Shown here piece after piece: positions 10,126 to 26,793 of a stretch of DNA of 38,076 nt. The notes under the pieces are model-generated. The model did no database searches, was not told where the DNA came from, and saw only the letters and a list, made by a program, of their open reading frames with translations. The DNA is from an uncultured Eubacteriales bacterium. Its GTDB lineage: Bacteria; Acidobacteriota; Aminicenantia; Aminicenantales; Aminicenantaceae. Numbering within the stretch: the first letter of the stretch is position 1; each line of letters begins with the position of its first letter. The position numbers and the translations under genes are program-made. The stretch lies in the NCBI GenBank assembly GCA_964640835.1, contig CAZXJE010000003.1, positions 1 to 38,076 on the forward strand, read 5' to 3'.

Positions 10126-11802
10126 TTAGCTGGTGCGCTTGACGATGACAAGAGTCATGTCATCCATCTGTTCGGTTCCAGATGTGTAAGAGTTGACCTC
10201 ATCAAATATTTTTTCAATAAGTTTTTGAGATGAAAGTTTATTGTTCTTTTTCAGGAGTTTACCCAGCCGATCTTCGTTAAATTCCTCATTGGCCTTGTTC
10301 CTGCATTCCGTGAATCCATCCGTGAAGAACAGAGCCATGTCTCCTTTTTCAAGACTTATTGTTCGAACTTCGTAATCGGCAATTGGGAACATACCTAAAC
10401 AGAATCCGCATGTATCCAGACGTATGATATCGCCCTTTTTGTTCAGAAGAATGGGCGGAGTATGGCCTGCGTTGAGATATGAGAATTCTCCAGTATTTTT
10501 GTTAAGTTCTCCATAGAAGAATGTGATAAACACATTGGACGCTGTACTGGAGTGAACGAGAATGTTAAGTTTGGCTGCCATTTCTATAATGTCATATGAA
10601 GGACTGACTTGGGTATGGAGAGAAGCCCGGAGTTGTGCCATGATAAGTGCTGAAGAGACGCCTTTTCCAGAAACATCAGCGATCGTTACGCCTATTCTCT
10701 CATCATCGATGTCGATAAAGTCGTAATAATCCCCGCCAACTTGATAACATGGGATGTTCGCACCGCTGATTTCGAACTGTTTACATTCCGGATTTTCCTT
10801 GGGCAGAAAATCTCGTTGAACTTGAGCAGCCAGTTCAAGTTGCTTTTCCATCTGATCCCTTTCCTTTTCCTGTTCGATGTGCTTGGAGTTTTCGATCTTA
10901 ACGGCAGCAAGGTTTGACAATAATGTGAGCAACTCCAAATCCTCGTCAGAGAACTGCTTCATGAGGGATATTCTGTCGGTATAGATAATTCCGATAATTT
11001 CTTTATTATCATAGAGAGGAACACACATGGCAGATTTAATATTCATTTTAAGGATACTGTCCTGAGCTTTAAAGCGGGAATCCTCTTGAACATCTGAGAT
11101 GAGAAGGGATGAATGTTTATTTATGGCCATATTGATGATGCTTTTACTCACTTGTATTTTCTGATTTTTCAAGCGTTCATTGTTGATTCGGATGACCTTA
11201 GGAATGAGTTGTGAAGGATTGCCCAGTTTAAGCATCAATATCCCTCTGTCCATCGGGAGATTTCCTGAAATGAGGTCCATGATATGTTCAAGAAGCTCGT
11301 TGAGGGGTTTGTGGAGAAGTAAAGCTTTATTGACTTCGTTGATCACCGCGAGAGATCGATGTTCGAGCTTGATCTGCTCGATATCGATGGGTCTGGCTGC
11401 AGCGCGGATGGTTGTGCTGATGTCATGCTTCTTTAGAACATCATCGAGATGCATGATGGTGTTGACGTTTACAGAGGGGGATGGGGCATCGGTGACTTCA
11501 ACATTGGATGAGATCTCTTTATCATATATTACACGAGTTGTCCCGACCAGAATTTCGTCTGCTTTTTTTAGCTCGACTTCAGCTGCAATTCGTTTGCCGT
11601 TCACAAATGTTCCATTTTTGCTATTATTGTTTCTTATCGCATAACCTTGATCAACGGGATAGAAGAATGCATGGCGGCCTGAACAAAAAGGATCTGGGAG
11701 AGGGATTTCATTGTCGGATGACCTTCCAATTGAGACTTTGTCCTGTGGTAAAGGAAACTGGAAGGCATCGCCCTCTTTGGGATAAATGTATAATTTTGGC
11801 AT
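10126..11802 (-). CDS. FHA-GAF-PP2C (SpoIIE/RsbU-type) serine phosphatase
   Basis: FHA motifs (IGRSSDNEIPL...SGRHA...NGTFVNG), a central GAF-like region, and a C-terminal PP2C/SpoIIE domain (GGDYYDF, ADVSGKG, FTDGFTE, DDMTLV). ATG at 11802 with AAGGGG upstream. The ORF extends to a TTG at 11811. Confidence 0.8.
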   Translation of the reverse strand: MPKLYIYPKEGDAFQFPLPQDKVSIGRSSDNEIPLPDPFCSGRHAFFYPVDQGYAIRNNNSKNGTFVNGKRIAAEVELKKADEILVGTTRVIYDKEISSNVEVTDAPSPSVNVNTIMHLDDVLKKHDISTTIRAAARPIDIEQIKLEHRSLAVINEVNKALLLHKPLNELLEHIMDLISGNLPMDRGILMLKLGNPSQLIPKVIRINNERLKNQKIQVSKSIINMAINKHSSLLISDVQEDSRFKAQDSILKMNIKSAMCVPLYDNKEIIGIIYTDRISLMKQFSDEDLELLTLLSNLAAVKIENSKHIEQEKERDQMEKQLELAAQVQRDFLPKENPECKQFEISGANIPCYQVGGDYYDFIDIDDERIGVTIADVSGKGVSSALIMAQLRASLHTQVSPSYDIIEMAAKLNILVHSSTASNVFITFFYGELNKNTGEFSYLNAGHTPPILLNKKGDIIRLDTCGFCLGMFPIADYEVRTISLEKGDMALFFTDGFTECRNKANEEFNEDRLGKLLKKNNKLSSQKLIEKIFDEVNSYTSGTEQMDDMTLVIVKRTS

Positions 11803-11845
11803 TGAGTTCAACCCCTTAAATTATAACCCTTGGAGGGGAAAAATA

Positions 11846-14338
11846 TCAAGAGAATTTGATCTTTTCTAGAGGCTTTATCATTTTTTTACACTTTCTTACT
11901 CTATCCTCGAACGAGATATCATCGATCAAGGGAAAAAGGACTTCTTTGACCTCCTTGTGTAAAATGTTGTCCAGAAGCTCGATGGAATAGTCAATCGATT
12001 TTTTAGTACCCGTACAGATATTCTGGTAGGCTTTGATGATATCATTTGGGGAGTAAATCAAGCTGAGAAGTTCAAATATGTGCTTCAACGATAGAGCGAG
12101 ATTCTTTTCCATATCGCTGACCAGATGTTCTTTCCTTCGGTCTGCCATCAGATCATGCATTTCTAGGAGAACAAAATAACATTTCTTGATGATCTGGATC
12201 GTTTTTCCCAATACGGGTTTTTGAGAAAACTGGATTTGGGGATGTTTTGTCCTCATTTTGTAAAGAGCTTCAATCATCTCTGTTTCGACCTCATTCTCTG
12301 TCTTTTTGAGCTCAGAAGCCAACAAATCCGCAGCCCTCTGTGTACCTACCTGTTTTAAAATATCAGGAATGGCTCTTCTTGTTTGCAAGTTGACATCTGG
12401 ATCCGAAAGATAGTCTTTGAGGATTCCTGTGATTTTATTTCCATATGCGACCAAGGCCTTGCTGGAAATAATCTCTACTCTTGGTGTGGATAGATGGTTG
12501 ATAAGGTGGGGTACGAACTCCCGCCTTTTTAGCCTGCCTGCGCTCTCGATCGCATACCTAAGAACATCGGGCGATTTGTCTTTGAGCAGTTTGTTGAGCT
12601 CGCTTGTGACGGGTGAGCTCGACTCTATCATCCCAAGGACTTTGGCCGCCTCCATCCTGGAAACTTCGCCTTTTTCGCCTTTCTCATCCACAATTTTGTC
12701 AAGCTGCTCTTTCAAGACTTGATGATAGATATCTTGAGACATGATCTCCTTGATTTGTGTGTTGATGTCCTCTTGGTCCAGGGCGTCATCTTCCTTCGGG
12801 AGGAGTAATTCTCCATCCAATTCCAAGAGTGAGTCCATTGCACATGCTTGGACCTGATCGGATTTGTGAGCTATTATGCTGCGCAACTCCGGACTCATTT
12901 TCTCTCTTTTGATAAGATCAAAAAGGTTCATCGCATACAAAACAGAGCTCCGGTCTTTGCTTTGGAGGGTGTCAAAGACAAGCTTTGTCATGTCGATGTC
13001 GACGGTCTCTGAGATGAACTTATCCGCATCTTGCCATTTGATCTTTAGGTTTTTTTTGACACTACCAACATACTCACGGGTGATCCAACGGTTAAGAAAA
13101 ATCCAGAGAAGGGAAAAGCCGATAACGATAAGACTTATATGCTCGAGCGAAAAATCAAGTATGAATATACAGACGATAAGGATGGTTGCCGCTATACCTT
13201 TAGCAAACTTGTTTACAAACATATCGATAAATACTTTAGCCTTGTATTTGATATCAGGTGAGATCGGGATGTACAACAATTCTCGAACCGACTGGTTGAG
13301 GGAATGTGCCAAGCTTTTATCTCCGCCTTTTATTGCTATGGCCCAATAGAGGAGGAATGCGGCTGGGATGAATAATATAGTAATCGAGGCTATCAAGAGG
13401 AACAAGGGGGCGATTGACAGCGCCAAACGCATCCCGAAATTTTTCAAGATCCGGCTTGTGAGAAAAATATGCACGAGGTAGGAGAATACGAGGAGCCCTG
13501 TGAAAAACGTGCCCAAAAACGCAGTCCTTTCGTCTTGGTCAACTAATACCACTTCAACTACAGAATTGAACTGAAAATCAATCAGTGTCGTTATGACAAT
13601 GGCTGTAGTCATGATGGCGCTCAAGATCAGCAGATACCGGTTTTTTTTGATGATACCAAAGCTTTCAAGATAACCGGTCTTGGGCGTCTTCGTTGAAGTA
13701 TTCCCTCTTTTTTTATCATCCAGAGGTTCTATTGTTTGTTTGTGAAGGATGGACACAAAAAGAATGCAGGGGAGGAGCAAAAAGGGGCAGATCAGGAGCA
13801 AATCCGTGGTTCCAAGAACCTGAGCAAGGAATCGGGCGGCCAATGATCCTGCTATGCCGCCTAAAAGTCCTCCACTCACAAGAAATCCGATCAGCCGCTT
13901 TGCCTGTCTGGGATGGTAGATATCATTGACCAAAATCCAGAATTGGGTTACTGTCGTTATAGTAAAAATGTCACACCACACCCAATAGATCATGGACAGC
14001 CAGCTCCATTCCATCTGGAAGAGAAACCAGAAAAGGACGAGGCTAAAAATAAAGAAAATCAAGCTTAGAGATATATACACATTCCTTTTCATTGCGTAGA
14101 TAAATTTTGTGTTGAGAGAAACAACAAAACCAATAAGTATAGCGGTAATAAGATAGGCAAAAGGAAGGAGCTCGGCGTTCAGCGATTCCAAAAAGTTTGA
14201 AATTTTAACGGGTTTTACGATGTATGCAGAGCATGTGATCAAGAAAAAATAGGAAAACATGAGAAGAGCAGTGGGCATCTCTCCATGTTTAATATCAACG
14301 AAGGGGGAGAGAGCTTTATGGATCGTAGTCTTTGTCAT
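11846..14338 (-). CDS. TLC (ATP/ADP translocase, Npt/AAA family)-like transporter fused to C-terminal HEAT repeats, paralogue 1
   Basis: Polytopic N-terminal domain of about 430 aa with the TLC-type motif FWILVNDIYHPRQAKRLIGFLVSGGLLGG. The C-terminal domain of about 380 aa is a soluble helical repeat domain (HEAT/PBS-lyase-like). 830 aa. Confidence 0.7.
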   Translation of the reverse strand: MTKTTIHKALSPFVDIKHGEMPTALLMFSYFFLITCSAYIVKPVKISNFLESLNAELLPFAYLITAILIGFVVSLNTKFIYAMKRNVYISLSLIFFIFSLVLFWFLFQMEWSWLSMIYWVWCDIFTITTVTQFWILVNDIYHPRQAKRLIGFLVSGGLLGGIAGSLAARFLAQVLGTTDLLLICPFLLLPCILFVSILHKQTIEPLDDKKRGNTSTKTPKTGYLESFGIIKKNRYLLILSAIMTTAIVITTLIDFQFNSVVEVVLVDQDERTAFLGTFFTGLLVFSYLVHIFLTSRILKNFGMRLALSIAPLFLLIASITILFIPAAFLLYWAIAIKGGDKSLAHSLNQSVRELLYIPISPDIKYKAKVFIDMFVNKFAKGIAATILIVCIFILDFSLEHISLIVIGFSLLWIFLNRWITREYVGSVKKNLKIKWQDADKFISETVDIDMTKLVFDTLQSKDRSSVLYAMNLFDLIKREKMSPELRSIIAHKSDQVQACAMDSLLELDGELLLPKEDDALDQEDINTQIKEIMSQDIYHQVLKEQLDKIVDEKGEKGEVSRMEAAKVLGMIESSSPVTSELNKLLKDKSPDVLRYAIESAGRLKRREFVPHLINHLSTPRVEIISSKALVAYGNKITGILKDYLSDPDVNLQTRRAIPDILKQVGTQRAADLLASELKKTENEVETEMIEALYKMRTKHPQIQFSQKPVLGKTIQIIKKCYFVLLEMHDLMADRRKEHLVSDMEKNLALSLKHIFELLSLIYSPNDIIKAYQNICTGTKKSIDYSIELLDNILHKEVKEVLFPLIDDISFEDRVRKCKKMIKPLEKIKFS

Positions 14339-14347
14339 ATTCGGCCT

Positions 14348-16840
14348 TTAAAAAAATGGAAAATTCTTCAGAAGGACGCGGCATCTCTTCACTCTTTCCA
14401 TGATGGACAAATCCTCAATGATGGGGAATATGGCATCCTTGATTTCTTTTTGCAAAAGGTTATCGAGAAGCTCGACGGCATAGGCTACCGAATCTTTAGT
14501 GCCGGTTCGAATGTTCTGGTAGGATTTCATGATGTCTTCGTGGGAATAGATCAACCCCAAAAGCTTGAAGATATTGGATAATCGAGTGATTATGTGATTC
14601 GGTATCTTAAATCTTGCGCTGACGTCTTGGCTTTCCTTAGAGTGGCGTTCATAGGCTTCGATCAGGTCTTTATAGTACTCTTTTACTTGTTCGGAGATCT
14701 TGTTCTTGACAGTTCTCTCTTGGAAATAGATATTCGCTCTTGCCGAACGGATGCGGTCCATGGCATCGATGAGCTCACTTTCCATGTTCTCTCTTCGCTC
14801 CTCTAGTTCCAATAAGAGAAAATCAGCCGCTTCTTGATTGCCGATTCGTGCCAGAGATGTAACCACTTCCTTTCTCAGCTCTATATCGATTTCCAAATCC
14901 CCAAGGTAATCTGCAAGAGTTCCGGTGATCTTGGGACCATATTTTTCCAGAGCGCTTCTCGCATCCACCCGAGTCATGGGATTTTCTAATTTTTCGATGA
15001 GCGCGGGCACATACTCTCTCTTTTGCAGCTTCGCCGCACTGGCCATGGCATATCGACTTACTTCTACAGAATCATCATTGAGCAGCTCTTCAAGTTTATC
15101 ACTCATGGGAGACCGAGAATCCGAGAATCCCAAGGCTTTGGCTACTTCCATCCTTGCCGTTTCTGACTCGTTATCTTTATTGACGAGAACCTCTTCTATA
15201 TACTCGCTCATGATCTCATTATAGACATCCAGTGACATGATCTCTTCAATCTCTTTTAGTAGAATTCCTTCATTGACTTGATCTTCAAAATCAGGTGCAA
15301 TTCCCGACTCGGAACCCTCAAACAACATCCCCACAGAAGATAATCTGACCTCATCCTGCTTGTAGCCGATCAGTTTTTTAACTTCGGGTGTGAGCTTATC
15401 TTGCTTGATCAGGTCGAATATATCCATGGCATACAAAATGGAACTCCGATTCTTGTCCTCGATAGTGTCGAGAACAAGCTTCATGAAGTCCACGTCCAGC
15501 TTTTCATCCACGATCCTGTCTGCACGCTTACTCTTTTTTAATTTTCCTTTGATGATATTGGCATACTCCTTGCTCACTCTTAGATTGAGCCCTACCCACA
15601 GGAGGATAAACACTATCGACATAATGCTAACAATCCGAATTCTTAAGATCTGAGCTGTCGGAACCCAAACGAAGATCATGAGTAATAGAGCACCGATGCC
15701 CTTTCCCACCCTGTTGAGAAACATATCGATGAAGATCTTTGCCTTATATTTAACTTCTGGAGATATAGGGATATAAAGCAGCTCTCTCACGGACTGATTC
15801 AGGGAAAAAGAAAGGCTCTTATCACTTCCTTTGATGCTTAATGCGAATAGGATGGTCGGGAAGGCTGCAATTCCGAACGAAAAGAGAAGAAGTATCAAAG
15901 GATAAACAAGGAGAGTTAAGCGGATGCCTAAGCGTTTGATGATATTGCTAGTCATAAGCAGTTGTACGAAGAATGGAACAATGAGCAATGCAGAGTTGAA
16001 ATATCCAAAAAAGGAGATGTAAAACGTCTGTGTAACTTCCCTCTCAATAACGGTATTATACTGAAAATCGACGAAAGTCGACACGATCCATGTGATGGTG
16101 ACGAGGGCGGCAAGGAGTTTCAAATAGTAAGTTTTTCTGACTGTTTTGAAACAGTCTAAAAAACCGACTTTCTCGATCTTTCCAGATTTTTGTACATCAT
16201 CTGTTTCCACCCGAGTAGGGGGGGGACTAGTTTTTTGTCTCCACCTGAATATTGAAGCTGCGACACCTATGTTGAGGATAAGTATTCCACCGGCAATATA
16301 AAGGAGGTAATCGGGAATGTAAGTAGCCAAAACACCGGCTAAAAGCCCTCCCACTATCCCTCCGAGGATGCCACCGCTCACCAAAAAGCCGATTAACCTT
16401 TTTGCTTCTCTGGGATTAAAGACGTCGTTGACTAATATCCAGAACTGAGTCATAAGCACCATAATGAAGACGTTGGCCCATACAAAAAAAACAAGAGGAA
16501 CCCATCCTAGATCTTTTATAAAAAGAATCCCAAAAACAAAACTTGAGAGAATGAAAAAAACAAGACTGGCAATAATGAGAAGAGATCTTGGGATCCGGGC
16601 TTGAATTTTAGAATGAAAGGCGACAACAAAGCCCATAAAAATGGCTGTGATTAGATAGGCAACAGGTAACCATGCAGCTTGATATTCGATAATGTACTTG
16701 GCGTTTCTGACTGATTTGATAATAGTGTAAGGAGCAGATATTAGAAAAAAATTGAAGAACAACAAAAGCGAGATGGTTTCTTCACCTCGCTTAATCTCTA
16801 CAATCCGGGATAGAAGTCGAAACAGGCGATTTTTGGTCAT
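14348..16840 (-). CDS. TLC-like transporter fused to C-terminal HEAT repeats, paralogue 2
   Basis: Same architecture and exactly the same length (830 aa) as the downstream paralogue. Motif FWILVNDVFNPREAKRLIGFLVSGGILGG. A 9-nt gap separates it from paralogue 1. Confidence 0.7.
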   Translation of the reverse strand: MTKNRLFRLLSRIVEIKRGEETISLLLFFNFFLISAPYTIIKSVRNAKYIIEYQAAWLPVAYLITAIFMGFVVAFHSKIQARIPRSLLIIASLVFFILSSFVFGILFIKDLGWVPLVFFVWANVFIMVLMTQFWILVNDVFNPREAKRLIGFLVSGGILGGIVGGLLAGVLATYIPDYLLYIAGGILILNIGVAASIFRWRQKTSPPPTRVETDDVQKSGKIEKVGFLDCFKTVRKTYYLKLLAALVTITWIVSTFVDFQYNTVIEREVTQTFYISFFGYFNSALLIVPFFVQLLMTSNIIKRLGIRLTLLVYPLILLLFSFGIAAFPTILFALSIKGSDKSLSFSLNQSVRELLYIPISPEVKYKAKIFIDMFLNRVGKGIGALLLMIFVWVPTAQILRIRIVSIMSIVFILLWVGLNLRVSKEYANIIKGKLKKSKRADRIVDEKLDVDFMKLVLDTIEDKNRSSILYAMDIFDLIKQDKLTPEVKKLIGYKQDEVRLSSVGMLFEGSESGIAPDFEDQVNEGILLKEIEEIMSLDVYNEIMSEYIEEVLVNKDNESETARMEVAKALGFSDSRSPMSDKLEELLNDDSVEVSRYAMASAAKLQKREYVPALIEKLENPMTRVDARSALEKYGPKITGTLADYLGDLEIDIELRKEVVTSLARIGNQEAADFLLLELEERRENMESELIDAMDRIRSARANIYFQERTVKNKISEQVKEYYKDLIEAYERHSKESQDVSARFKIPNHIITRLSNIFKLLGLIYSHEDIMKSYQNIRTGTKDSVAYAVELLDNLLQKEIKDAIFPIIEDLSIMERVKRCRVLLKNFPFF

Positions 16841-16873
16841 AAAATGACTCAGTTTTCGATAAAATACAGAGGA

Positions 16874-17221
16874 TTACTGCTCTAGAAAGGCCGCCAATGC
16901 GATTTCTTCATTATCATGAATGTCGAGAACTTTTGTAAGCATGGTGACTTGGAAAACAAGGTAGAGCTTCTGAGAAATTTTAGCAATTTTTAATTGTCCG
17001 CCCAGATTGTGAGTGGAAATATAGCTGGCTAATATTTCTCCCACTCCAAAGCTATCGATGAATTCCACCTTGTCAAAATTTAGGAGAATCTTCTTGTTTC
17101 CAGAATCCAGTTGATCTTTTACAAGTTGGTGCAGAGTGACATCGGAAATGTCTGATCTTCTGATTTCGCCTTCAATATCGAATACGATAATATCGCTTTG
17201 TTTTCTTGAATTTATCTTCAT
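16874..17221 (-). CDS. STAS-domain anti-sigma-factor antagonist (SpoIIAA/RsbV-like)
   Basis: 115 aa with a typical STAS layout and the phospho-acceptor context FIDSFGVGEIL (DSxG). First gene of the long minus-strand operon. Confidence 0.85.
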   Translation of the reverse strand: MKINSRKQSDIIVFDIEGEIRRSDISDVTLHQLVKDQLDSGNKKILLNFDKVEFIDSFGVGEILASYISTHNLGGQLKIAKISQKLYLVFQVTMLTKVLDIHDNEEIALAAFLEQ

Positions 17222-17375
17222 TTTTATCCCTTGTCCTTTAAGACCTCAGCGAATCCTGATACCCTTTCCTGCGGATAGTCTGTCTATGCGGTTTTTTTAC
17301 GCGATAGACTTGCTATAACAGATTCTACTTAAGCTTTTACCAGAACGCTATTTCAAAGTCAATCTCTTGCTATGA

Positions 17376-17566
17376 TGAATTATTCATAAAATTTGCTGCC
17401 AAATTTATATTCTAAAAACATTCAATATTTTATTGGCGGCATCTTTTACCCTGCAGGCGAGCCGATCTCACAACAAAGCTTTCGTTGTAGCCCATTTGAG
17501 GTAGTTTACTACATCTTCATGGGCCACTGCCTGGCCTTTGTAGCGATATCAGCTCGTGAATAATTC
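17376..17566 (-). repeat. Copy B (complete) of the structured intergenic element
   Basis: The revcomp aligns base-for-base with copy C over about 125 nt. It is bounded by TGAATTATTCA (17376-17386) and TGAATAATTC (17557-17566). The variable hairpin is GCCGCCAA/TTGGCAGC (plus-strand coordinates 17395-17440), flanked by A- and T-runs. Confidence 0.85.
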
Positions 17567-17575
17567 TTTATCGTC

Positions 17576-17586
17576 TGAATTATTCA
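17576..17586. repeat. Solo copy of the 11-bp palindrome TGAATTATTCA
   Basis: Exact motif, 8-9 nt beyond the end motif of copy B. A similar tandem arrangement, with an 8-nt spacer, is seen at 37938-37967. Confidence 0.6.
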
Positions 17587-17596
17587 TAAATCTCAT

Positions 17597-17625
17597 TTGT
17601 CAATTTGACGATAGAGGAATATAAT
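17597..17625 (+). promoter_or_regulatory. Sigma70-like promoter for the phosphatase/kinase-like cluster
   Basis: TTGTCA (17597-17602), a 17-nt spacer, then a perfect TATAAT (17620-17625). Confidence 0.5.
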
Positions 17626-17700
17626 AAAATTGGAGGAATTGAGAGATGCGATGGATGATCAGTGGGGGAGCGACTCCAACCGATGAAACAAGGGAGTTCA

Positions 17701-18807
17701 ATGAAAGCCAGTGAAATCCAGAATAGAATGAAGCCAATTCGGCATATTCTCTTCATTGCCCTTATCACAGTTCTGTGTTTTACATTTTCTTTGGCTGAGG
17801 AACTGCCATGCGAATGGACTGGAGTCAAAAAAATCGTAGCGATCGGGGACCTGCACGGAGACTACAAGAACTTTGTGGAAATACTGAAAGGAGTTAAACT
17901 TGTCGATGACTCTCTCCATTGGAAAGGTGGAGAAATTCACTTCGTTCAGACAGGGGACATCTTAGACAGAGGACCGGATGGAAAAAAAATACTCGATCTG
18001 ATCCTGCTCCTGGAAAAAGAGGCCGAAGAAGCTGGAGGAATGGTCCACATGTTGATCGGAAACCATGAGGAGATGAATATTACGGGTATTGCCATCGACA
18101 ATCCGAGATATGTAACAGTAGAGCAATTTATATCTTTTCTTCCCGATGATTTTAGAGAAAACAAAGAGGAAGATTTTAAAAAAAAATATGACAAAAATAA
18201 TAACAAATCTTCAAACTCCGCTCTTTCTTATGAAACAGAGTTAAGAAATTACTGGGCCGATGTTTTGAAAAAGGACAGAAAAGCGAAAGCAGAGTACACA
18301 AGATATTTTAACGATAACTACGGAAAGTGGATCATAAAACACAACGCCGTAATAAAGATCAATGAAACGGTCTTTGTTCATGGTGGAATCAGCAATAGCT
18401 ACTCTAAGAAGAGCTTAAAGGATATCAACAACCAATTGCGAAGGGAGTTGGAGGAATTCCGGCTGGCACTAAAGAGGGGAAGAGCTTTGAGGTCTCAGCC
18501 GAAAATTGTGTACGATCAGAATGGCCCTCTGTGGTACAGAGGTTTGGCTATAAAGGAGGATGTGAATTTTGCGGAAGAAGTAAAAAAAATCCTGAATAAT
18601 CTCGGGGCTAAAAATATGGTGATCGCTCATACTCCCCAGAGAGGGAGCAGTAGTGTAGTCTCTGAAGAATTCGTTAGCCGCTATGATGAGAGTATCTGGA
18701 TCATCGATACAGGCATTTCCGAAGTGTATGGAGGTTTTTTAAGTGCATTGATCATAGAAGAAGGGGACATCTGGCTATGGCCAGAGGGGGAAATTAATGA
18801 AAATTAA
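17701..18807 (+). CDS. Secreted PPP-family (calcineurin-like/Shelph-like) metallophosphatase
   Basis: PPP signatures GDLHGD, GDILDRG and GNHE. Signal peptide ...MKPIRHILFIALITVLCFTFSLA-EE. ATG at 17701 is preceded by AGGGAG. The ORF extends up to a GTG at 17662, so the start is uncertain. Confidence 0.8.
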   Translation: MKASEIQNRMKPIRHILFIALITVLCFTFSLAEELPCEWTGVKKIVAIGDLHGDYKNFVEILKGVKLVDDSLHWKGGEIHFVQTGDILDRGPDGKKILDLILLLEKEAEEAGGMVHMLIGNHEEMNITGIAIDNPRYVTVEQFISFLPDDFRENKEEDFKKKYDKNNNKSSNSALSYETELRNYWADVLKKDRKAKAEYTRYFNDNYGKWIIKHNAVIKINETVFVHGGISNSYSKKSLKDINNQLRRELEEFRLALKRGRALRSQPKIVYDQNGPLWYRGLAIKEDVNFAEEVKKILNNLGAKNMVIAHTPQRGSSSVVSEEFVSRYDESIWIIDTGISEVYGGFLSALIIEEGDIWLWPEGEINEN

Positions 18808-19588
18808 ACTAATTCTGGCAGTTGGATTTTTGATGATCTTGAACACAACATTCATCTGTGGAAAGGAGTTTCATCCCGTTCAGGAAAATGCAGACATGAA
18901 CAAATTGGAAAAATATCTAAAAACAGCTGAAATTTATGAAGTCGAGATCGATAAATATGAAGGGAGAACGGCTCCATGGGGAGTAGTATTGAATGATGGA
19001 GAGATAAGCAGACAAGCGATATTCAAGTATGCCAATCGGCCCCGACCTACTCTTCTTCCAGATAGCTATCATTACGAAATTGCTGCTTATGAGATAAGCA
19101 AACTTTTAGAATACCTCGTGGTCCCACCTGTCGTGGAAAGAGAGGTTAAGGAAACACTGGGATCTCTTCACATATATCTCGAGGGATGTTTTTCGCTGAT
19201 TCATCGACAAAGAATAGGCACAAAATCCAATGACTCCCAAAAATTTTCTGATGCTCTATGCGAGATCTCTGTTTTTGAGAACTTGGTTTTTTGTGAAAGA
19301 GATCCCGAAGATATTTACATCCAAGAGAGCGATTGGAAGATCTGGCGTGTTGATTTTTCTGAGGCATTTGCGCCTTTCGCGGAGCTAATTTCTGAGGCTG
19401 CTATCACAAGATGTTCGAAGGAGCTTTTCCATAATCTGCAGAGATTGGAAGCGAGCGAGATAAAAAAAGTGCTCGAGCCCCATCTTAACGACGAGGAGAT
19501 AGATGCCCTCCTCAAAAGAAAAGATCTGATCATCGATAAAATCAAGCTTTTGATCGAGGAAAAGGGCGAAGACGCCGTCCTATTCTAG
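18797..19588 (+). CDS. Secreted type-II-PI4K-like kinase-fold paralogue 1 (catalytic loop degenerate)
   Basis: Signal peptide. Shares YLKTAEI, YHYEIAAYEISKLL...VPPV.ERE, GSLH and the C-terminal LNDEEIDALLKRKDLI...EEKGEDAVLF with the paralogues at 21256 and 22142. CERDPEDI replaces NEDRxxxN. The start overlaps the phosphatase gene by 11 nt. Confidence 0.65.
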   Translation: MKIKLILAVGFLMILNTTFICGKEFHPVQENADMNKLEKYLKTAEIYEVEIDKYEGRTAPWGVVLNDGEISRQAIFKYANRPRPTLLPDSYHYEIAAYEISKLLEYLVVPPVVEREVKETLGSLHIYLEGCFSLIHRQRIGTKSNDSQKFSDALCEISVFENLVFCERDPEDIYIQESDWKIWRVDFSEAFAPFAELISEAAITRCSKELFHNLQRLEASEIKKVLEPHLNDEEIDALLKRKDLIIDKIKLLIEEKGEDAVLF

Positions 19589-19781
19589 TCCATTTTCTTA
19601 TCTAAGTGCCCAGAAAATGTGCATTCGATTATAATCCCAATTAAATCAATTTGTTAACAAAATCCCATTCGATTTTTCAACAAACTTTTGCACAGAAAGC
19701 GTGGAAAAGTAAATTAATTTCCGATTGACATTTGCAATCAATTATGAAAAATTCAAGGACGCTTCATGGAGGGAAAATAAA

Positions 19782-21176
19782 ATGGGATCTTCTGAGAATA
19801 GTCTAAGAAGTGATAAACACGGTATCTTCAATAAGTTTCTAAGCCTCTTTGCCACTGTCTATCCAGGAGAATTACCAACTGCTTTACTCCTCACTCTGAA
19901 CATCTTCTTGATCTTTGCTGCTTATTACATAATAAAGCCCATAAGAGAGGCACTGATTCTCGCTGGAAAAGGGCCTGAAATCAAAAGCTATCTCTCTGCC
20001 GTAATTGCAATTGTGCTAATTTTTGTTGTGAAAGCATTCAGTAGAGTTTCCTCTCGTTTTCCAAGACAGAAATTGATCACGTGGGTGACTCTTTTCTTTG
20101 TTTCTAACTTGGTCATATTTTATGCCCTATCATTTACAGATATCAGTCTTGGAACATTTGGCATAATTTTTTTCATTTGGATAGGCGTTTTTAATGTCCT
20201 GGTTCCTGCGCAGTTCTGGGGTTTTGCCAATGACATCTACAATCCCGAAGAAGGAAAACGACTCTTTCCAATTGTCGCTTTCGGTGCTACATTCGGAGGT
20301 TTCTTTGGAAGTGTTGGTGCGGGTGGGCTTGTCGAACCAATCGGATTATATCGAATGATGCTAGTTTCTGGCGCAATTCTATTGATTTGTATCATTTTGG
20401 CTTGGATTATTCATACCAGAGAAAAAAAGAGGGCCAAACTTAAAATATCAACGAACGGTCAAGCTGACTCCCAGCAAGAAGATGCGGAGAAACCACTGAA
20501 AAAAGGTGGAGGTTTTAAGCTTGTATTTAAAAAGAGATATCTTCTCTATATTGCTTTCTTTGTTTTATTGCTGAATTTCATAAATACGAACGGGGAGTTT
20601 ATTCTAGGGCAATATGTCAAAAAGAGTGCTCATGAAGTTGTTGAGATGGGACAATCAGAAGGATTAAACACGGAAGAATACATAGGCAAATTTTATGCGG
20701 ATTTTTATAAATATCAAAATCTTTTTGCTATTCTGATCCAACTTTTCCTTGTCTCCCGAATATTCAAGTGGATTGGAGTCAGAGGTGCAATTTTTGTTTT
20801 ACCCTTCATTGCACTTGGCGGATATGCTTTCATTGCCATCGGCGCATCCTTGCTTGTTGTGAAGTGGGTAAAAGCCACTGAAAATGGGACGGATTACTCC
20901 TTAATGAACACTACAAGACATGCTCTATTCCTCATTACATCGAGAGAAGAGAAGTATAAAGCCAAAGCTGCGATCGACACTTTTTTTCACAGATCAGGGG
21001 ATGTTCTGTCAGCCTTAGTCGTCTTTATCGGGTCCACATACCTCACTTTGAGCTCAACCGGATTTGCAGGTATTAATGTTATTTTATGCTTGATTTGGAT
21101 TTTTCTCGGAGTTTTAATAGCGAAAGAGTATAAAAGGCTTTCAGGAGAAGCAACTCCTGCAAAGGAAGCACAATAA
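19782..21176 (+). CDS. TLC (ATP/ADP translocase family)-like nucleotide transporter, short form without HEAT domain
   Basis: Polytopic protein with the motif FWGFANDIYNPEEGKRLFPIVAFGATFGG, close to rickettsial/chlamydial Tlc/Npt. ATG at 19782 is preceded by GGAGGG. The ORF extends to a TTG at 19725. Confidence 0.75.
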   Translation: MGSSENSLRSDKHGIFNKFLSLFATVYPGELPTALLLTLNIFLIFAAYYIIKPIREALILAGKGPEIKSYLSAVIAIVLIFVVKAFSRVSSRFPRQKLITWVTLFFVSNLVIFYALSFTDISLGTFGIIFFIWIGVFNVLVPAQFWGFANDIYNPEEGKRLFPIVAFGATFGGFFGSVGAGGLVEPIGLYRMMLVSGAILLICIILAWIIHTREKKRAKLKISTNGQADSQQEDAEKPLKKGGGFKLVFKKRYLLYIAFFVLLLNFINTNGEFILGQYVKKSAHEVVEMGQSEGLNTEEYIGKFYADFYKYQNLFAILIQLFLVSRIFKWIGVRGAIFVLPFIALGGYAFIAIGASLLVVKWVKATENGTDYSLMNTTRHALFLITSREEKYKAKAAIDTFFHRSGDVLSALVVFIGSTYLTLSSTGFAGINVILCLIWIFLGVLIAKEYKRLSGEATPAKEAQ

Positions 21177-21255
21177 AGATTTTGATTTTCAGAACTTGAA
21201 TGGTTATCATAGAAATGTAAACCAGTGGGGATGATTAACTTTAAGGGATAATCCA

Positions 21256-22077
21256 ATGAAAAGAAAATTCCTTTTCGTCTTGGTTTTTGGTCTTCTTCTC
21301 TCACTCGTTTCTTCTCTGTATGCACAATTTACTCCTGAAGAGATCGCCGAGCGGCCGAAAATAGAGGAGTTTCTGAGGACAGCAGAAATTATCAGGTCCA
21401 AGGATATTGGAGAGGGCGTCACAAAACCGTATAAGCTGGACATGAAAAGTGGCGATGAAGAACATAGTGGTTGCTGGAAGAATCCCAGCGGAATGCAGAA
21501 GGGTTTTATTGAGGGATGGCAGTATGAGATCGCTGCTTATGAGATGGATAAACTGTTGGGATTGAACATGATCCCACCCACAAAAGAAAGGGAATTCAAC
21601 GGAAAGAGAGGATCTCTCCAGTTCTGGATCACAAGTGAAATGAGCGATCTTGAAAGAATGGAACAGGGAATTAAAATTCCACAGGATAAGCTGGAGAGTT
21701 GGAACAAACAAAAATATTTGACGAGGGCCTTTGATTGTGTGATCGCCAACGAAGATCGAACGCAACAAAATATCCGCTACAAGAAGGATTGGCGGACGAT
21801 TCTCATCGATCATTCGCGGAGCTTCCGCTCTTCTGAGAAATTTCAGAAACAGCTGGTTTTTGGTAAAAATGGTGTATTAGCTCAAAAACTGTTCAGACGT
21901 CTTCCGTGGGTGTTTGTTGAAAACGTTAGAGCATTAAATTTTGATAAAATCAAACAAGCTGTTGGGCCATATTTAACAGATGAGGAAATCCAAGCTGTCC
22001 TGGTAAGGAAAAAACTCCTTTTGGACGAAATTGAAGAAATGATCGAAGAAAAAGGAGAGGCAAACGTCCTGTATTAG
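21256..22077 (+). CDS. Secreted type-II-PI4K-like kinase-fold paralogue 2 (motifs intact)
   Basis: Signal peptide with LYA-QF cleavage context. Motifs GCWKNPSG (candidate ATP-binding Lys), WQYEIAAYEMDKLLGLNMIPPT, GSLQFW, ANEDRTQQN (21748-21771), and LIDHSRSF. Confidence 0.65.
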   Translation: MKRKFLFVLVFGLLLSLVSSLYAQFTPEEIAERPKIEEFLRTAEIIRSKDIGEGVTKPYKLDMKSGDEEHSGCWKNPSGMQKGFIEGWQYEIAAYEMDKLLGLNMIPPTKEREFNGKRGSLQFWITSEMSDLERMEQGIKIPQDKLESWNKQKYLTRAFDCVIANEDRTQQNIRYKKDWRTILIDHSRSFRSSEKFQKQLVFGKNGVLAQKLFRRLPWVFVENVRALNFDKIKQAVGPYLTDEEIQAVLVRKKLLLDEIEEMIEEKGEANVLY

Positions 22078-22141
22078 AAATTAATTTTCTATATGGCTAT
22101 AAAGTGTGATTATCAATATAAACATGGAAGGAGGGACAAAA

Positions 22142-22975
22142 GTGAAAAAATACATCATGACTTTTTCAGTTTTTATCCTCATTTTGGGATTCAATCTTCC
22201 TTCATTTGCCCAGTTCAAGCCGGAAGAAGTGGAAGCGCGTGATAAGTGGGAAGAGTTCTTGAGGACGGCTGAAGTTACCGGTCAAGATCAACCGTTTAGT
22301 GATCGAGAGGCGGTCACAAAGCCCTGGGTGGTCACCCTGGAAAAAGACGGAGTCACGAATAAAGCGATATGGAAAAATCCTGAAGGGCGAATGAAGGGCT
22401 TTATGGAAAACTGGAGATGGGAGATCGCTGCCTATCATCTGGACAAGCATTTGAACCTTAACATGGTGCCTCCAACAGTGGAAAGACGGTTTCAAGAAAA
22501 TCGCGGATCATGCCAGTTATGGGTTGATTCCATGATGAGCCTTAGACAAAAAGTCGAGAACAAGGTAAAAACTCCCTCCTATAAAATTTTCTACTGGAAC
22601 AGAGCTCTCTATATGCAAAGGGTTTTCGACAATCTGATCGCAAATGAGGACCGCCATCAGAATCAGTATCTCATCACTGAAGATTGGCGGATGATCCTCA
22701 TAGACCATTCCCGGTCATTCCGTACAGCCAAGAAATTTACAAAGAATCTTATTTATGACGAGAAATACAAGGAAGGGCCCACATTTATTATGAAAGAAAT
22801 CCCCAAAGACCTGTATGAAAAGCTAAAAACTCTGAGTGCCGATGTCATGAAAGAAGTTGTCGGGGAATATTTGACTGATAAAGAGATCGAAGCAACTCTG
22901 ATGCGCAGGGACCTGATCATCAATTGGTTGGATAAGAGAATTAAAAAAATGGGGGAAGAAAAAGTCCTGTACTGA
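22142..22975 (+). CDS. Secreted type-II-PI4K-like kinase-fold paralogue 3 (motifs intact)
   Basis: The GTG at 22142 lies 6 nt after AAGGAGGG; the ORF extends to 22106. Signal peptide with SFA-QF cleavage context. Motifs AIWKNPEG, WRWEIAAYHLDKHLNLNMVPPT, GSCQLW, ANEDRHQNQ (22643-22666), and LIDHSRSF. Confidence 0.65.
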   Translation: MKKYIMTFSVFILILGFNLPSFAQFKPEEVEARDKWEEFLRTAEVTGQDQPFSDREAVTKPWVVTLEKDGVTNKAIWKNPEGRMKGFMENWRWEIAAYHLDKHLNLNMVPPTVERRFQENRGSCQLWVDSMMSLRQKVENKVKTPSYKIFYWNRALYMQRVFDNLIANEDRHQNQYLITEDWRMILIDHSRSFRTAKKFTKNLIYDEKYKEGPTFIMKEIPKDLYEKLKTLSADVMKEVVGEYLTDKEIEATLMRRDLIINWLDKRIKKMGEEKVLY

Positions 22976-22977
22976 AC

Positions 22978-23601
22978 TCAGCTTTTTTCGTTCATGCTGA
23001 TAATCTCATTCTCCTCAAGATAACGAATAACAGTATCTTGGCATTGTACGAGCGTGAGCTTATCTGTATCTAGTGTGAGTTCAGGATTCAGCGGTTCTTC
23101 ATAGGGAGCGGATATGCCCGTGAATTCTTTAATCTCGCCAGTCCGAGCCTTTTTATAGAGGCCTTTGGGATCTCTTTTTTCTGCCACATCCAAAGACACC
23201 TTTACAAAGATTTCAATAAATTCACCGCCCTCGAGAAGCTCTCTGTTTCGGTCTCTGTCCTTTCTGTAGGGAGATATGAATGCTGTCATGGTGATTAACC
23301 CCGCATCAGCAAACAATTTGGCCACTTCTCCGATGCGGCGGATATTTTCTTCTCGGTCCTCGGGGGAGAATCCAAGGTTTTTATTCAAACCATGGCGGAT
23401 ATTGTCTCCATCCAGAACATAGCTCAGATGACCACGCTCGAAAAGCCGTTCCTCTACGGCACGGGCGATAGTGGACTTGCCAGAGGATGAGAGACCTGTA
23501 AACCAGATCACCACGCCCTTTTGTTGAATAAAACGCTCTCTATCTAATTTGGTGATGTCTCCATCATGCCAGGTTATGTTTGTTGCTTTTTGAATGGTCA
23601 T
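22978..23601 (-). CDS. cysC: Adenylyl-sulfate (APS) kinase
   Basis: P-loop [11 protein letters not shown] and APS-kinase length. ATG at 23601 is preceded by GGAGAA. The longer ORF to 23667 runs into the repeat element and is unlikely to be real. Confidence 0.85.
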
Positions 23602-23631
23602 TGTACATTCTCCATAATTGTATTGTAATCC

Positions 23632-23880
23632 TGAATTATTCACGAGCTGATATCGCTGCAAAGGCAAGGCAGTGGCCCATGAAGATGTAGTGAACTACCT
23701 CGAATGAGCTACAACGAAGGCTTTGTTGTGAGATCAGTTCGCCCGTAGGGTAAAAAATGTCGATTATTGTAATAAGAGCCATGAAAATGGAAACGTTAAA
23801 TTGATTTCGTGTATGGACCAAATGAGTTGTCAAAATTGTTTTATTTGTAGTAAGAATCGACATTTTTTATGAATAATTCA
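23632..23880 (+). repeat. Copy C (complete) of the structured intergenic element, lying between sat and cysC
   Basis: Bounded by TGAATTATTCA (23632-23642) and TGAATAATTCA (23870-23880); the latter overlaps the sat stop codon. The conserved core is about 23643-23756. A long-range stem ATGTCGATT (23757-23765) / AATCGACAT (23855-23863) is flanked by AAAAA and TTTTTT. Confidence 0.85.
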
Positions 23881-25047: not shown

Positions 25048-25079
25048 TATGACCTCCACGTATTAAATACAGATTTAAA

Positions 25080-25484
25080 CTAAGTGAATGTTTTGTAAAT
25101 AGTGAGAATATTCTGATCGTTTTCTCTTTTATAATCGAATCCATCCATGAGTTTTCTTGCAAGAAAAATCCCGAATCCACCCTTCTGTCCGTTTGAGATC
25201 ATTTTTTCTAAATCAGGGTCCTCAACCGTTATCGGATCAAAGGGGATGCCATCATCACTGATCTCGAGGTAGAACTTATTGTTGTCCTCCCAGGTCTTCA
25301 GATGGATGTTTCCTTGGTCTTCTGGATAAGCATAACGAATGATATTGACACAAATTTCGAGCATTGACAACTCGATAGCATAATAATCCGTTTCTGAAAT
25401 AGAGAGTGCGCTCAAATTTTCCTTGAGGTAAGCTCTGATTTTATTCAGCTCTGCCAAGTCGCTAACAACAGTGAGTGTTTTCAT
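25080..25484 (-). CDS. Anti-sigma regulatory factor-type serine kinase (RsbW/SpoIIAB-like, HATPase_c)
   Basis: 134 aa with an N-box-like EICVNIIRYAY, SDDGIPFDP, and the G-box GGFGIFLARKLMD. It lies 32 nt upstream of sat on the same strand. Confidence 0.8.
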   Translation of the reverse strand: MKTLTVVSDLAELNKIRAYLKENLSALSISETDYYAIELSMLEICVNIIRYAYPEDQGNIHLKTWEDNNKFYLEISDDGIPFDPITVEDPDLEKMISNGQKGGFGIFLARKLMDGFDYKRENDQNILTIYKTFT

Positions 25485-26783: not shown

Positions 26784-26793
26784 GGAGATCTAA

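Follow-up and report, generated by a model that had tools for sequence, protein, structure and literature searches.

Neighbouring genes for Fam20-like kinases, a PPP-family phosphatase and nucleotide-transporter homologues in hundreds of bacterial species suggest an undescribed extracytoplasmic phosphorylation system supplied with exported ATP

In this study, we analysed a gene cluster in a 38,076-nucleotide stretch of DNA (the window; contig CAZXJE010000003.1 of assembly GCA_964640835.1, positions 1 to 38,076 of the forward strand) from an uncultured Eubacteriales bacterium that GTDB places in the Acidobacteriota (Aminicenantia, Aminicenantaceae). Close homologues bear the names Candidatus Aminicenantes or Aminicenantaceae, which places the source organism there too. 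The cluster encodes a PPP-family phosphatase, three kinase-like paralogues, here called K1, K2 and K3, and a short transporter of the NTT/TLC family (S-TLC). Genes for such kinases, phosphatases and transporters lie side by side in hundreds of species from at least six phyla, which suggests an undescribed form of phosphorylation outside the cytoplasm that draws on exported ATP. That the three families make up one conserved functional module acting outside the cytoplasm is, in our judgement, very probable; that the cluster works by NTT exchange of ATP for ADP, phosphorylation by the exported kinases and reversal by the phosphatase is a proposition to which we give even chances. An earlier note, made from the sequence of the window, had proposed a module of this kind. 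The observation is real and its interpretation is supported in outline, with a linkage stronger and broader than had been noted, but the note overstated K1, and the closest relatives are Fam20 kinases rather than the type II PI4-kinases to which it had likened the paralogues.

The list of open reading frames (ORFs) places the five genes where the earlier note had put them, on the plus strand between 17.6 and 23.0 kb, in the order phosphatase, K1, short TLC, K2 and K3 and with short intergenic gaps (Table 1). The start of K1 overlaps the phosphatase stop by 11 nt. A profile scan of the whole window found exactly three kinase-like and three TLC-like ORFs. Just upstream, on the minus strand and behind a STAS gene, are two genes for NTT-HEAT fusion transporters, which the earlier note had not included in its module.

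Table 1. Features of the cluster and its surroundings in the window.
Feature	Coordinates	Strand	Basis or remark
Sigma-70-like promoter site, TTGTCA-17 nt-TATAAT	17597..17625	+	Consensus match, 11/12 positions, ahead of the cluster
Predicted exported Shewanella-like (Shelph) PPP-family phosphatase, signal-peptide-like N-terminus	17701..18807 (longest ORF from GTG 17662)	+	Pfam, motifs, PDB match
K1, probable pseudokinase: predicted exported paralogue of Fam20-like kinase fold, catalytic loop degenerate	18797..19588	+	Family profile, 297 bits
S-TLC, short NTT/TLC-family nucleotide-transporter homologue	19782..21176 (longest ORF from TTG 19725)	+	Pfam TLC, profile, AlphaFold2/Foldseek
K2, predicted exported Fam20-like kinase, catalytic set intact (CWKNP Lys, EIAAY Glu, NEDRTQQN loop, IDHSRSF)	21256..22077	+	Motifs, family profile
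K3, predicted exported Fam20-like kinase (IWKNP, EIAAY, NEDRHQNQ, IDHSRSF)	22142..22975 (longest ORF from GTG 22106)	+	AlphaFold2, Foldseek
NTT-HEAT fusion transporter 1, TLC domain and C-terminal HEAT repeats	14348..16840	-	Pfam TLC, MFS_1, HEAT_2; divergent from the cluster
NTT-HEAT fusion transporter 2, tandem paralogue	11846..14338	-	Pfam TLC, HEAT_2, MFS_1; conserved synteny
STAS-domain protein of the anti-sigma-factor antagonist type; its gene heads the divergent NTT-HEAT operon	16874..17221	-	Pfam STAS, 8e-10
FHA-GAF-SpoIIE (PP2C) phosphatase, partner-switching component, peripheral to the module	10126..11811	-	Pfam, synteny
HATPase_c_2 anti-sigma-type kinase, peripheral to the module	25080..25484	-	Pfam, synteny
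Adenosine phosphosulfate (APS) kinase, cysC	22978-23667	-	PAPS-synthesis pair; converges on K3, 2-nt gap
ATP sulfurylase, sat	23878-25059	-	PAPS-synthesis pair

One line of evidence for a module is linkage, which we followed in 80 Aminicenantes loci and in a separate set of 80 loci from other phyla that carry a phosphatase-kinase fusion or an adjacent pair of the two genes (loci bear L numbers). The Aminicenantes loci have two NTT-HEAT genes and the STAS gene on one strand, and the phosphatase, K1, short TLC, K2 and K3 on the other, followed by an anti-sigma-type kinase; this order holds to identities as low as about 60%. Phosphatase and K1 are joined in one ORF in some of them (L009, L015, L021, L024, L027 and L080), and 14 of the 21 long representatives of the kinase family combine a signal peptide, a PPP domain and a kinase domain, usually with intact N.DR and IDH(S/T) motifs. 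At least 577 loci, counting one genome per species, match patterns derived from the fusions and pass tblastn against the fusion protein; they come from Acidobacteriota (Thermoanaerobaculia, Terriglobales and Vicinamibacterales), Myxococcota, Gemmatimonadota, Desulfobacterota, Verrucomicrobiota and Gammaproteobacteria. Fusion of the two genes is strong evidence that the two activities work together.

The transporter gene is linked to this pair as well. A TLC-family ORF stands beside the fusion or the phosphatase-kinase pair in 65 of the 80 loci from other phyla (Acidobacteriota, Myxococcota, Gemmatimonadota, Gammaproteobacteria, Verrucomicrobiota and Desulfobacterota). These loci contain 71 TLC ORFs, all at a distance of 3.5 kb or less and 66 at 1 kb or less; the remainder of the 1.25 Mb of flanking sequence has none. 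Arrangements differ between lineages: the TLC gene may precede or follow the fusion or converge with it, the order may be phosphatase, TLC, kinase or kinase, phosphatase, TLC, and the strand varies. Such variety of order and orientation points to selection rather than to frozen inherited synteny. The co-localisation that the earlier note had seen in one genome is thus conserved well beyond Aminicenantes. In the reverse direction the association is weaker: among the 80 short-TLC loci most similar to the Thioalkalivibrio gene, 45 have a phosphatase or kinase gene nearby, and so do only 24 of 80 NTT-HEAT loci. NTT genes occur without the kinase in many Bacteroidota, Omnitrophota, Planctomycetota and Latescibacterota. 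The kinase and phosphatase are thus nearly always found with an NTT while the NTT is often alone, which fits a client, the kinase, that depends on a supplier, the transporter. Membership of such a module cannot be claimed for all NTT and NTT-HEAT genes, since 35 of 80 short-TLC loci and 56 of 80 NTT-HEAT loci have neither a phosphatase nor a kinase gene nearby. Clustering of all neighbouring ORFs in 80 loci gave no consistently linked substrate gene; the commonest neighbours were a small secreted protein (13 loci), a protein binding cyclic nucleotides (12) and a Ser/Thr kinase with TPR repeats (11). Since no other gene family is consistently linked, we regard the kinase, phosphatase and TLC genes as the core of the module.

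Cultured bacteria are among the carriers. Kangiella koreensis (CP001707, L241 8001-11263) has a two-gene version, a fusion and a 444-aa short TLC, between clpX and clpP; this TLC has no Pfam match and aligns with the short-TLC subfamily in hhalign with a probability of 100 and an E value of 2e-87. The K. koreensis module sits inside an otherwise conserved tig-clpP-clpX-lon block. The Kangiella fusion has 1989 database relatives, which go by the name of metallophosphoesterase or, occasionally, HipA family kinase, many with a precomputed PF20613 match. Other carriers are K. shandongensis, Thioalkalivibrio sp. XN8, Aerolutibacter ruishenii, Lysobacter daejeonensis, Aliikangiella sp. G2MR2-5 and Aliiglaciecola litoralis.

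The kinase-like paralogues belong to a large and essentially unnamed family. Homologues of K3 number 4196 in a 90%-identity clustered set of a collection of 5.8 billion proteins, and the family forms 3943 clusters at 50% identity, 512 of which reach an E value of 1e-30 or better. Against Pfam, K3 scores 21.1-21.3 bits and K2 13.9 bits with Fam20C (PF06702, cut-off 26.8), and K2 and K3 score 15.4 and 16 bits with HipA_2 (PF20613, cut-off 27); PI3_PI4_kinase (PF00454) gave no match at E <= 0.1 for any of the three. When 110 family members were scanned singly, matches, all below threshold, were obtained to PI3_PI4_kinase in 41, HipA_2 in 25, Fam20C in 16 and FAM198 in 8. The PI3_PI4_kinase matches have a best E value of 2e-7, and two fusions score 19.7 and 24.1 bits with this model against its cut-off of 27.1. 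A profile built from 110 diverse homologues and searched against PDB sequences matched Fam20A (E 8e-15), Fam20C (1.7e-10), Fam20B (1.7e-9) and Caenorhabditis elegans Fam20 (7.8e-8), followed by PI4K2B (1e-4) and PI4K2A (2.6e-4). The alignment with Fam20 spans the xFK Lys, the helix EIAA(Y/F)xLD(K/R)xLxxxxVPPTV and the N.DR loop, up to the C-terminal helix. In support of this, an AlphaFold2 model of K3 (pLDDT 94.2, pTM 0.89) returned Fam20C, Fam20B and Fam20A structures, including 5xoo (Fam20B), at ranks 1 to 20 in Foldseek, with E values of 5e-9 to 4e-7 and TM scores by query of 0.59-0.65; PI4K-II beta and alpha appear from rank 21 (E 1.6e-6, TM 0.47-0.48), and PI3K and PI4K-III after them. 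A kinase fold was therefore found by model and profile alike where a non-kinase fold had been considered, and a predicted fold of the PI3/PI4K-Fam20-HipA group is supported for the paralogues. The earlier note was right that PI4K-II is a genuine relative and that the order of the motifs agrees, but Fam20 is closer (profile E 8e-15 versus 1e-4; TM 0.60-0.65 versus 0.47-0.48): by both predicted structure and profile, the nearest solved relatives are the animal secretory-pathway kinases Fam20A, Fam20B and Fam20C, with type II PI4-kinases second. This matters because Fam20 enzymes are themselves extracytoplasmic.

The residues expected of an active kinase are widely kept. Across the 110 homologues, Lys78 is K or R in 92, the helix-C Glu94 is present in 89, the catalytic Asp170 in 80, the loop Asn175 is N or D in 106 and the metal-binding Asp188 is present in 107, so that the putative Lys, Glu, Asp, Asn and Asp, which include the four positions proposed in the earlier note (Lys, Asp, Asn and Asp), are conserved in 64-97% of these diverse homologues. 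This Fam20-type catalytic set is found in K2, in K3 and in most of the family, and orthologues of K2 and K3 keep NxDR(T/H)Q.N and IDHSR(S/A)F. K1 does not share it. Of the four ordered motifs that the earlier note had assigned to all three paralogues, K2 and K3 carry each one, whereas K1 has AIFKYA, GSLHIY, FCERDPED and RVDFSEAF in their place; it retains the FK Lys and the Asp of DFSEAF and lacks NxDR...N. Because the catalytic loops of K1 orthologues are variable and degenerate (VYDECLDTDD and FCERNPED, for example), K1 is probably a pseudokinase or a non-canonical member of the family and not a third intact kinase. Kinase activity of the paralogues and the role of K1 are predictions.

At the N-terminus of the phosphatase, K1, K2 and K3 alike, a stretch rich in K/R precedes a hydrophobic core of Kyte-Doolittle value 2.8-3.3 (cytoplasmic proteins of the window do not exceed 1.8), and by this charge and hydrophobicity heuristic the signal peptides that the earlier note had read in the four proteins are borne out. 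N-termini of the same kind occur in 118 of 129 full-length family representatives; many end in A-x-A/Q and are followed by a conserved mature N-terminus, A/QF.PEE. The signal peptide of K2 ends LYA/QF, and the signal-peptide-like N-terminus of the phosphatase, MKASEIQNRMKPIRHILFIALITVLCFTFSLA/EE, ends SLA/EE. All four proteins are therefore predicted to be exported.

The phosphatase passes Pfam Metallophos (49.2 bits against a cut-off of 21.5, E 1.1e-12), its translation contains the GDLHGD, GDILDRG and GNHE motifs that had been pointed out before, and models for ApaH and PrpE score far under their cut-offs. Its closest solved relatives are the cold-active protein-tyrosine phosphatases of Shewanella (2Z72/1V73, E 6e-35), the Rhilph structure 5VJV reaching only 0.008, and on the strength of this match we place it in the Shelph group of bacterial PPPs. 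Shelphs, or SLPs, are PPP enzymes of bacterial type (Andreeva and Kutuzov 2004, PMC535813). The cluster phosphatase resembles them in having all three PPP motifs and solved Shelph relatives at E 6e-35, and differs in its translational coupling or fusion to a kinase-fold domain and in having an NTT linked to it; our full-text literature searches found no report of such an architecture. In some gammaproteobacterial fusions (L161 and L172) the second PPP motif reads GDLLGRGD or GDVFSRGD, not GDxxDRG, while Kangiella keeps GDNLDRG.

As the earlier note had stated, a gene of the TLC/Npt family lies between K1 and K2: S-TLC passes Pfam TLC (PF03219; transporter class TC 2.A.12) with 50.4 bits against a cut-off of 21, and the NTT-HEAT proteins pass it with 55.2 and 47.2 bits. 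Scores of 44.9 and 48.8 bits with NCBIfam TIGR00769, the NTP/NDP exchange transporter model with a cut-off of 387.2, mark a distant subfamily. Source databases name S-TLC orthologues ATP:ADP antiporter or Npt1/Npt2. Searched against PDB, the profile of the short-TLC subfamily matched NTT1 chains only, from Chlamydia pneumoniae (E 5.9e-14) and Arabidopsis (E 0.0015), and the motifs FWxFA(N/A)...E(A/G)(K/Q)R and K.(K)GK..ID..R.G, as well as basic residues, are common to short TLCs and C. pneumoniae NTT1. The AlphaFold2 model of S-TLC (pLDDT 83.8) likewise returned NTT1 of C. pneumoniae and Arabidopsis at ranks 1 to 5 in Foldseek (E 1.5e-11 to 6e-8, TM 0.55-0.75), ahead of generic MFS transporters at about 1e-7 or weaker, so that the NTT fold can be told apart from MFS. 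Profile and model thus support S-TLC as a genuine but divergent relative of the NTTs. The position of NTT-HEAT 1 is conserved in Aminicenantes, and the same type of gene adjoins phosphatase-kinase fusions in Acidobacteriota, Myxococcota and Gemmatimonadota.

These transporters also turned up in other settings. NTT-HEAT genes are paired with a short TLC gene (about 450 aa) and have no kinase or phosphatase nearby in 12 loci (L264, L265, L272, L273, L284, L285, L289, L296, L298, L304, L306 and L309); this pairing of two NTTs is seen in Bacteroidota, Latescibacterota, KSB1, Gemmatimonadota and others. A protein that has a domain for binding cyclic nucleotides (cNBD) adjoins NTT-HEAT genes in 12 of the loci L081-L160 (for example L091 3-944), in line with what Major et al. 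2017 (PMC5381601) reported on the association of NTT-HEAT with cNBD. Gammaproteobacterial short TLCs (L161 7351-7761, from Thioalkalivibrio sp. XN8, and similarly in L119 and L146) carry a C-terminal He_PIG putative Ig domain (Pfam 1.7e-8), which follows a basic stretch after the last membrane helix and is unexpected on the tail of a transporter.

The mechanism that we propose brings these activities together outside the cytoplasm. K2 and K3 would be Sec-exported minimal kinases of the Fam20/PI4K-II/HipA structural group that act in the periplasm or at the cell surface, where they would need a nucleotide as phosphate donor. NTTs are nucleotide antiporters whose net direction follows the gradients. 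With ATP high in the cytoplasm of a free-living cell and ADP generated outside, net efflux of ATP and retrieval of ADP would be the natural mode, and S-TLC, probably together with the two NTT-HEAT proteins, would carry cytoplasmic ATP out and the ADP made by the kinases back in. The exported Shelph phosphatase would strip the phosphate and so make the modification reversible. K1, whose translation is coupled to that of the phosphatase and which some relatives have as a fusion with it, has lost its catalytic loop and is for this reason most likely a pseudokinase partner with a regulatory or substrate-binding part to play, which would resemble Fam20A beside Fam20C. Because the partner is a protein phosphatase of the PPP type, we suggest, with low confidence, envelope or secreted proteins as the substrates. 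The broader claim that many free-living diderms run ATP-dependent, reversible phosphorylation in the periplasm or at the cell surface, fed by NTTs and with Fam20-like kinases as writers and a Shelph as eraser, is a tentative one, whose chances we put somewhat short of even.

Several observations weigh against this mechanism. To our knowledge, every characterised NTT is an importer, serving intracellular bacteria or plastids, and we infer ATP export from the reversibility of antiport. ATP released into the periplasm of a diderm should leak through porins, which would be costly. Export of the proteins was judged by the heuristic described above and not by a trained predictor such as SignalP. No Pfam or NCBIfam model reaches its cut-off with K1, K2 or K3, which match Fam20C, HipA_2 and TIGR03843 weakly, so that the paralogues of the window are sub-threshold for Fam20C, HipA_2 and PI3_PI4_kinase. 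The Mg-binding Asn of the K3 loop is shifted, lying one residue earlier (DRHQNQY) than in the pattern of the earlier note, and the altered second motif of some gammaproteobacterial fusions implies that the phosphatase domain is perhaps inactive in some lineages. About 15 of the 80 fusion loci have no TLC gene in reach, some 8 of them with ample flanks; the linkage is strong, not obligatory. Because the NTT family includes carriers of NAD and S-adenosylmethionine (SAM), as entries in the reference list of Major et al. 2017 (PMC5381601) indicate, membership in it does not fix the substrate.

This breadth of substrates invites the explanation that the transporter carries NAD, SAM or 3'-phosphoadenosine-5'-phosphosulfate (PAPS) and that the linkage stems from control of the transporter or from a common envelope process, not from ATP supply. 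Apart from the NAD and SAM carriers in that reference list, the marked divergence of the short TLC (TIGR00769 44.9 bits versus 387), the sat and cysC genes (PAPS) and metK and ahcY genes (SAM cycle) that adjoin the cluster in the window, and the partner-switching regulators that flank the NTT-HEAT genes would all fit. However, sat and cysC are found in a subset of Aminicenantes loci and in none from other phyla, metK occurs only beside them or by chance, the basic residues shared with ATP-bound NTT1 are retained, and an exported kinase fold needs a nucleotide donor for which no alternative supplier is linked; we hold this explanation to be very unlikely. A nutritional role, in which the NTT imports nucleotides and the exported metallophosphoesterase-kinase processes extracellular nucleotides or phosphoesters, seems to us quite unlikely. 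Scavenging is known for periplasmic Metallophos enzymes such as 5'-nucleotidases, NTT genes must have a function of their own given how often the kinase is missing beside them, and characterised NTTs are all importers (Major et al. 2017, PMC5381601). Yet the phosphatase is of Shelph/PPP type, with a protein-tyrosine phosphatase as its best match at E 6e-35, and not of UshA/CpdB type; nucleoside and phosphate uptake genes are not among the linked neighbours in 80 loci; and scavenging gives no obvious role to a conserved, catalytically intact kinase domain, which would still need a phosphate donor outside the cell.

Two further readings concern the kinases themselves. The exported kinase-fold proteins might modify a non-protein component of the envelope, such as a glycan or a lipid head group, or carry out an ATP-dependent reaction other than that of a kinase, for instance AMPylation, with the NTT still supplying the nucleotide. 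Their relatives include the glycan kinase Fam20B (E 1.7e-9), which phosphorylates xylose, and the lipid kinases PI4K2A and PI4K2B; the kinase-fold enzymes SelO and SidJ are known to catalyse different reactions (cited in PMC7948968); and no gene for a protein substrate is linked in 80 loci. We nevertheless consider such chemistry unlikely, given that the obligatory partner belongs to the PPP family, whose characterised relatives act on phosphoproteins (PMC535813), and that the catalytic loop has the form canonical for phosphotransfer, D-x-x-x-x-N with a metal-binding Asp. It could also be argued that the hydrophobic N-termini, which were recognised by a heuristic and in K1 show no clear AxA cleavage site, anchor the proteins in the membrane or arise from faulty annotation and that the proteins act on the cytoplasmic side, in which case the linkage would reflect a membrane-associated cytoplasmic pathway with no call for ATP outside. 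This we find scarcely credible: K/R residues, a hydrophobic core of 10-15 residues and A-x-A/Q are near-universal in the family and precede a mature N-terminus that is conserved and belongs to the fold, fused proteins bear the signal peptide at the phosphatase end, and the homologous Shewanella phosphatase, Shelphs generally and Fam20 are extracytoplasmic enzymes.

Extracytoplasmic phosphorylation by exported kinases has its closest parallel in animals. The Fam20 group comprises the Golgi casein kinase Fam20C, the xylosylkinase Fam20B and the pseudokinase Fam20A, and in the Golgi, Fam20C and Fam20A are fed by import of ATP into the lumen. Fam20 proteins are the best profile and structural matches of the cluster kinases and share with them the (A)xFK motif, EIAA(F/Y)xLD(R/K)xLxxxxVPPTV, the N.DRxxxN loop, the D-x-(S/G)..F metal site and the C-terminal helix. 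The likeness extends to a signal sequence and a site outside the cytosol (by heuristic here), to active kinases beside a degenerate paralogue (Fam20A there, K1 here), and to ATP brought into the compartment by a nucleotide transporter, which is established for the endoplasmic reticulum and Golgi and which we infer for the bacteria. They differ in that the mature bacterial proteins have about 250 residues versus about 400, do not have the full Fam20 architecture, complete with insertions and an N-terminal segment, so that Fam20 chains are covered in part (TM by target 0.41-0.53) and fall under the Pfam Fam20C threshold (21 bits versus 26.8), that the proposed carrier is NTT/TLC and not of SLC35 type, and that the dedicated PPP phosphatase, coupled or fused, has no Fam20 counterpart. 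PI4K2A and PI4K2B share the structural group and the motif order, with profile E values of 1e-4 to 2.6e-4 and weak PF00454 matches in 41 of 110 members. They are nonetheless weaker matches than Fam20 among solved structures, the match covers the catalytic core only (query 126-195), and they are cytosolic, palmitoylated eukaryotic lipid kinases, whereas the cluster kinases carry signal-peptide-like N-termini. HipA/HipA_2 and CotH belong to the same superfamily branch; many fused homologues are precomputed as HipA_2, which K2 and K3 match weakly (15-16 bits versus a cut-off of 27), and no match to CotH was obtained for the cluster kinases. HipA, however, is a toxin of the cytoplasm that has HipB as its antitoxin, CotH works in spore-coat assembly inside the mother cell, and both lack a Sec signal peptide as well as any linked PPP phosphatase or NTT, unlike the cluster kinases.

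The transporters likewise have described relatives. S-TLC shares Pfam TLC, its five best Foldseek matches and signature motifs with the NTT/TLC transporters of Chlamydia and Rickettsia (Npt/Tlc) and of plastids (NTT1), and differs in its divergence (TIGR00769 45 bits versus 387), its free-living host and the proposed net direction, export. The NTT-HEAT proteins of the window have the architecture described for free-living bacteria by Major et al. 2017 (PMC5381601), who reported NTT and NTT-HEAT(-cNBD) genes there without assigning them a function and whose account makes no reference to kinases or phosphatases.

Within the literature that we searched, the module appears not to have been described. 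One survey of kinase-like families treats the FAM20 cluster as eukaryote- or Metazoa-specific with CotH as its bacterial neighbour (PMC9758233), the bacterial member described for the FAM20/CotH group is CotH (PMC9758233; PMC7821199), and a review of Fam20 makes no mention of bacterial homologues (PMC7948968). Full-text searches for periplasmic kinases, periplasmic ATP, Shelph fusions and bacterial Fam20 homologues returned nothing relevant, and no description of exported bacterial Fam20-like kinases, of comparable PPP-kinase fusions or of a link between these and NTTs was found in the literature searched. The textbook view holds that the periplasm contains no ATP, and ATP-dependent regulation there is hence thought absent. 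Coupling of an exported kinase, a phosphatase and an antiporter in at least six phyla, fusions included, makes this assumption directly testable, and there are cultured, genetically simple carriers in which to do so, namely K. koreensis with its two-gene version, L. daejeonensis, A. ruishenii and Thioalkalivibrio sp. XN8. If phosphorylation of the kind proposed does take place, it would overturn the working assumption of a periplasm free of ATP and kinases, and would explain why free-living bacteria retain transporters of the "parasite type", a concrete hypothesis for the question left by Major et al. 2017 (PMC5381601). It would also identify the prokaryotic family closest to the Fam20 kinases, hitherto considered eukaryote-specific. 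In any case, the bacterial family brought to light here is a large one, with about 3900 clusters at 50% identity, and has animal Fam20 kinases as its nearest solved relatives.

The starts of several genes in the cluster can be refined. The phosphatase likely begins at ATG 17701, behind a GGGAG ribosome-binding site. K3 likely begins at GTG 22142 and S-TLC at ATG 19782, since their orthologues have 277 and 464 aa, respectively. The longest TLC ORF opens with a TTG that coincides with the first hexamer of a promoter-like site, TTGACA-16-AAAAAT (19725-19752, plus strand), which, with the 464-aa orthologues, suggests an internal promoter and a start at ATG 19782. Ahead of the cluster, the near-consensus promoter of the earlier note is present and is the joint-best consensus match within 16800-23700, but promoter-like sites overall are no commoner in the region than in shuffled sequence (17 versus 14.6).

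A partner-switching set (STAS, PP2C and anti-sigma-type kinase) brackets the cluster and is syntenic with NTT-HEAT throughout Aminicenantes; the STAS gene has the same position in most of these loci, and STAS or PP2C genes lie near NTT-HEAT in a few loci from other phyla (L144, L151, L156, L160, L171 and L243). Judging from this gene order, the set may control the NTT-HEAT transporters from the cytoplasm. The anti-sigma-type kinase directly follows K3 in most Aminicenantes, and cysC and sat intervene in the window. In other Aminicenantes sat and cysC are in the same spot or absent, which looks like an insertion/loss polymorphism between K3 and the anti-sigma kinase; with a presence in only a subset of Aminicenantes and in no other phylum, they were rejected as a general part of the module. 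Downstream are metK and ahcY (25617-28050, plus strand), possibly relevant since one NTT-family member is a SAM carrier; in other loci metK is adjacent only where sat and cysC are also present, or by chance. An anti-phage defence system was considered and set aside, PADLOC giving only a weak match of the catalytic loop to a candidate family. Finally, many Aminicenantes have an extra minus-strand gene in the gap of about 1 kb between TLC and K2 (for example L012 8125-8970), which has no counterpart in the window and encodes a secreted beta-propeller protein of the SdiA-regulated/phytase-like type (Pfam 5e-13).

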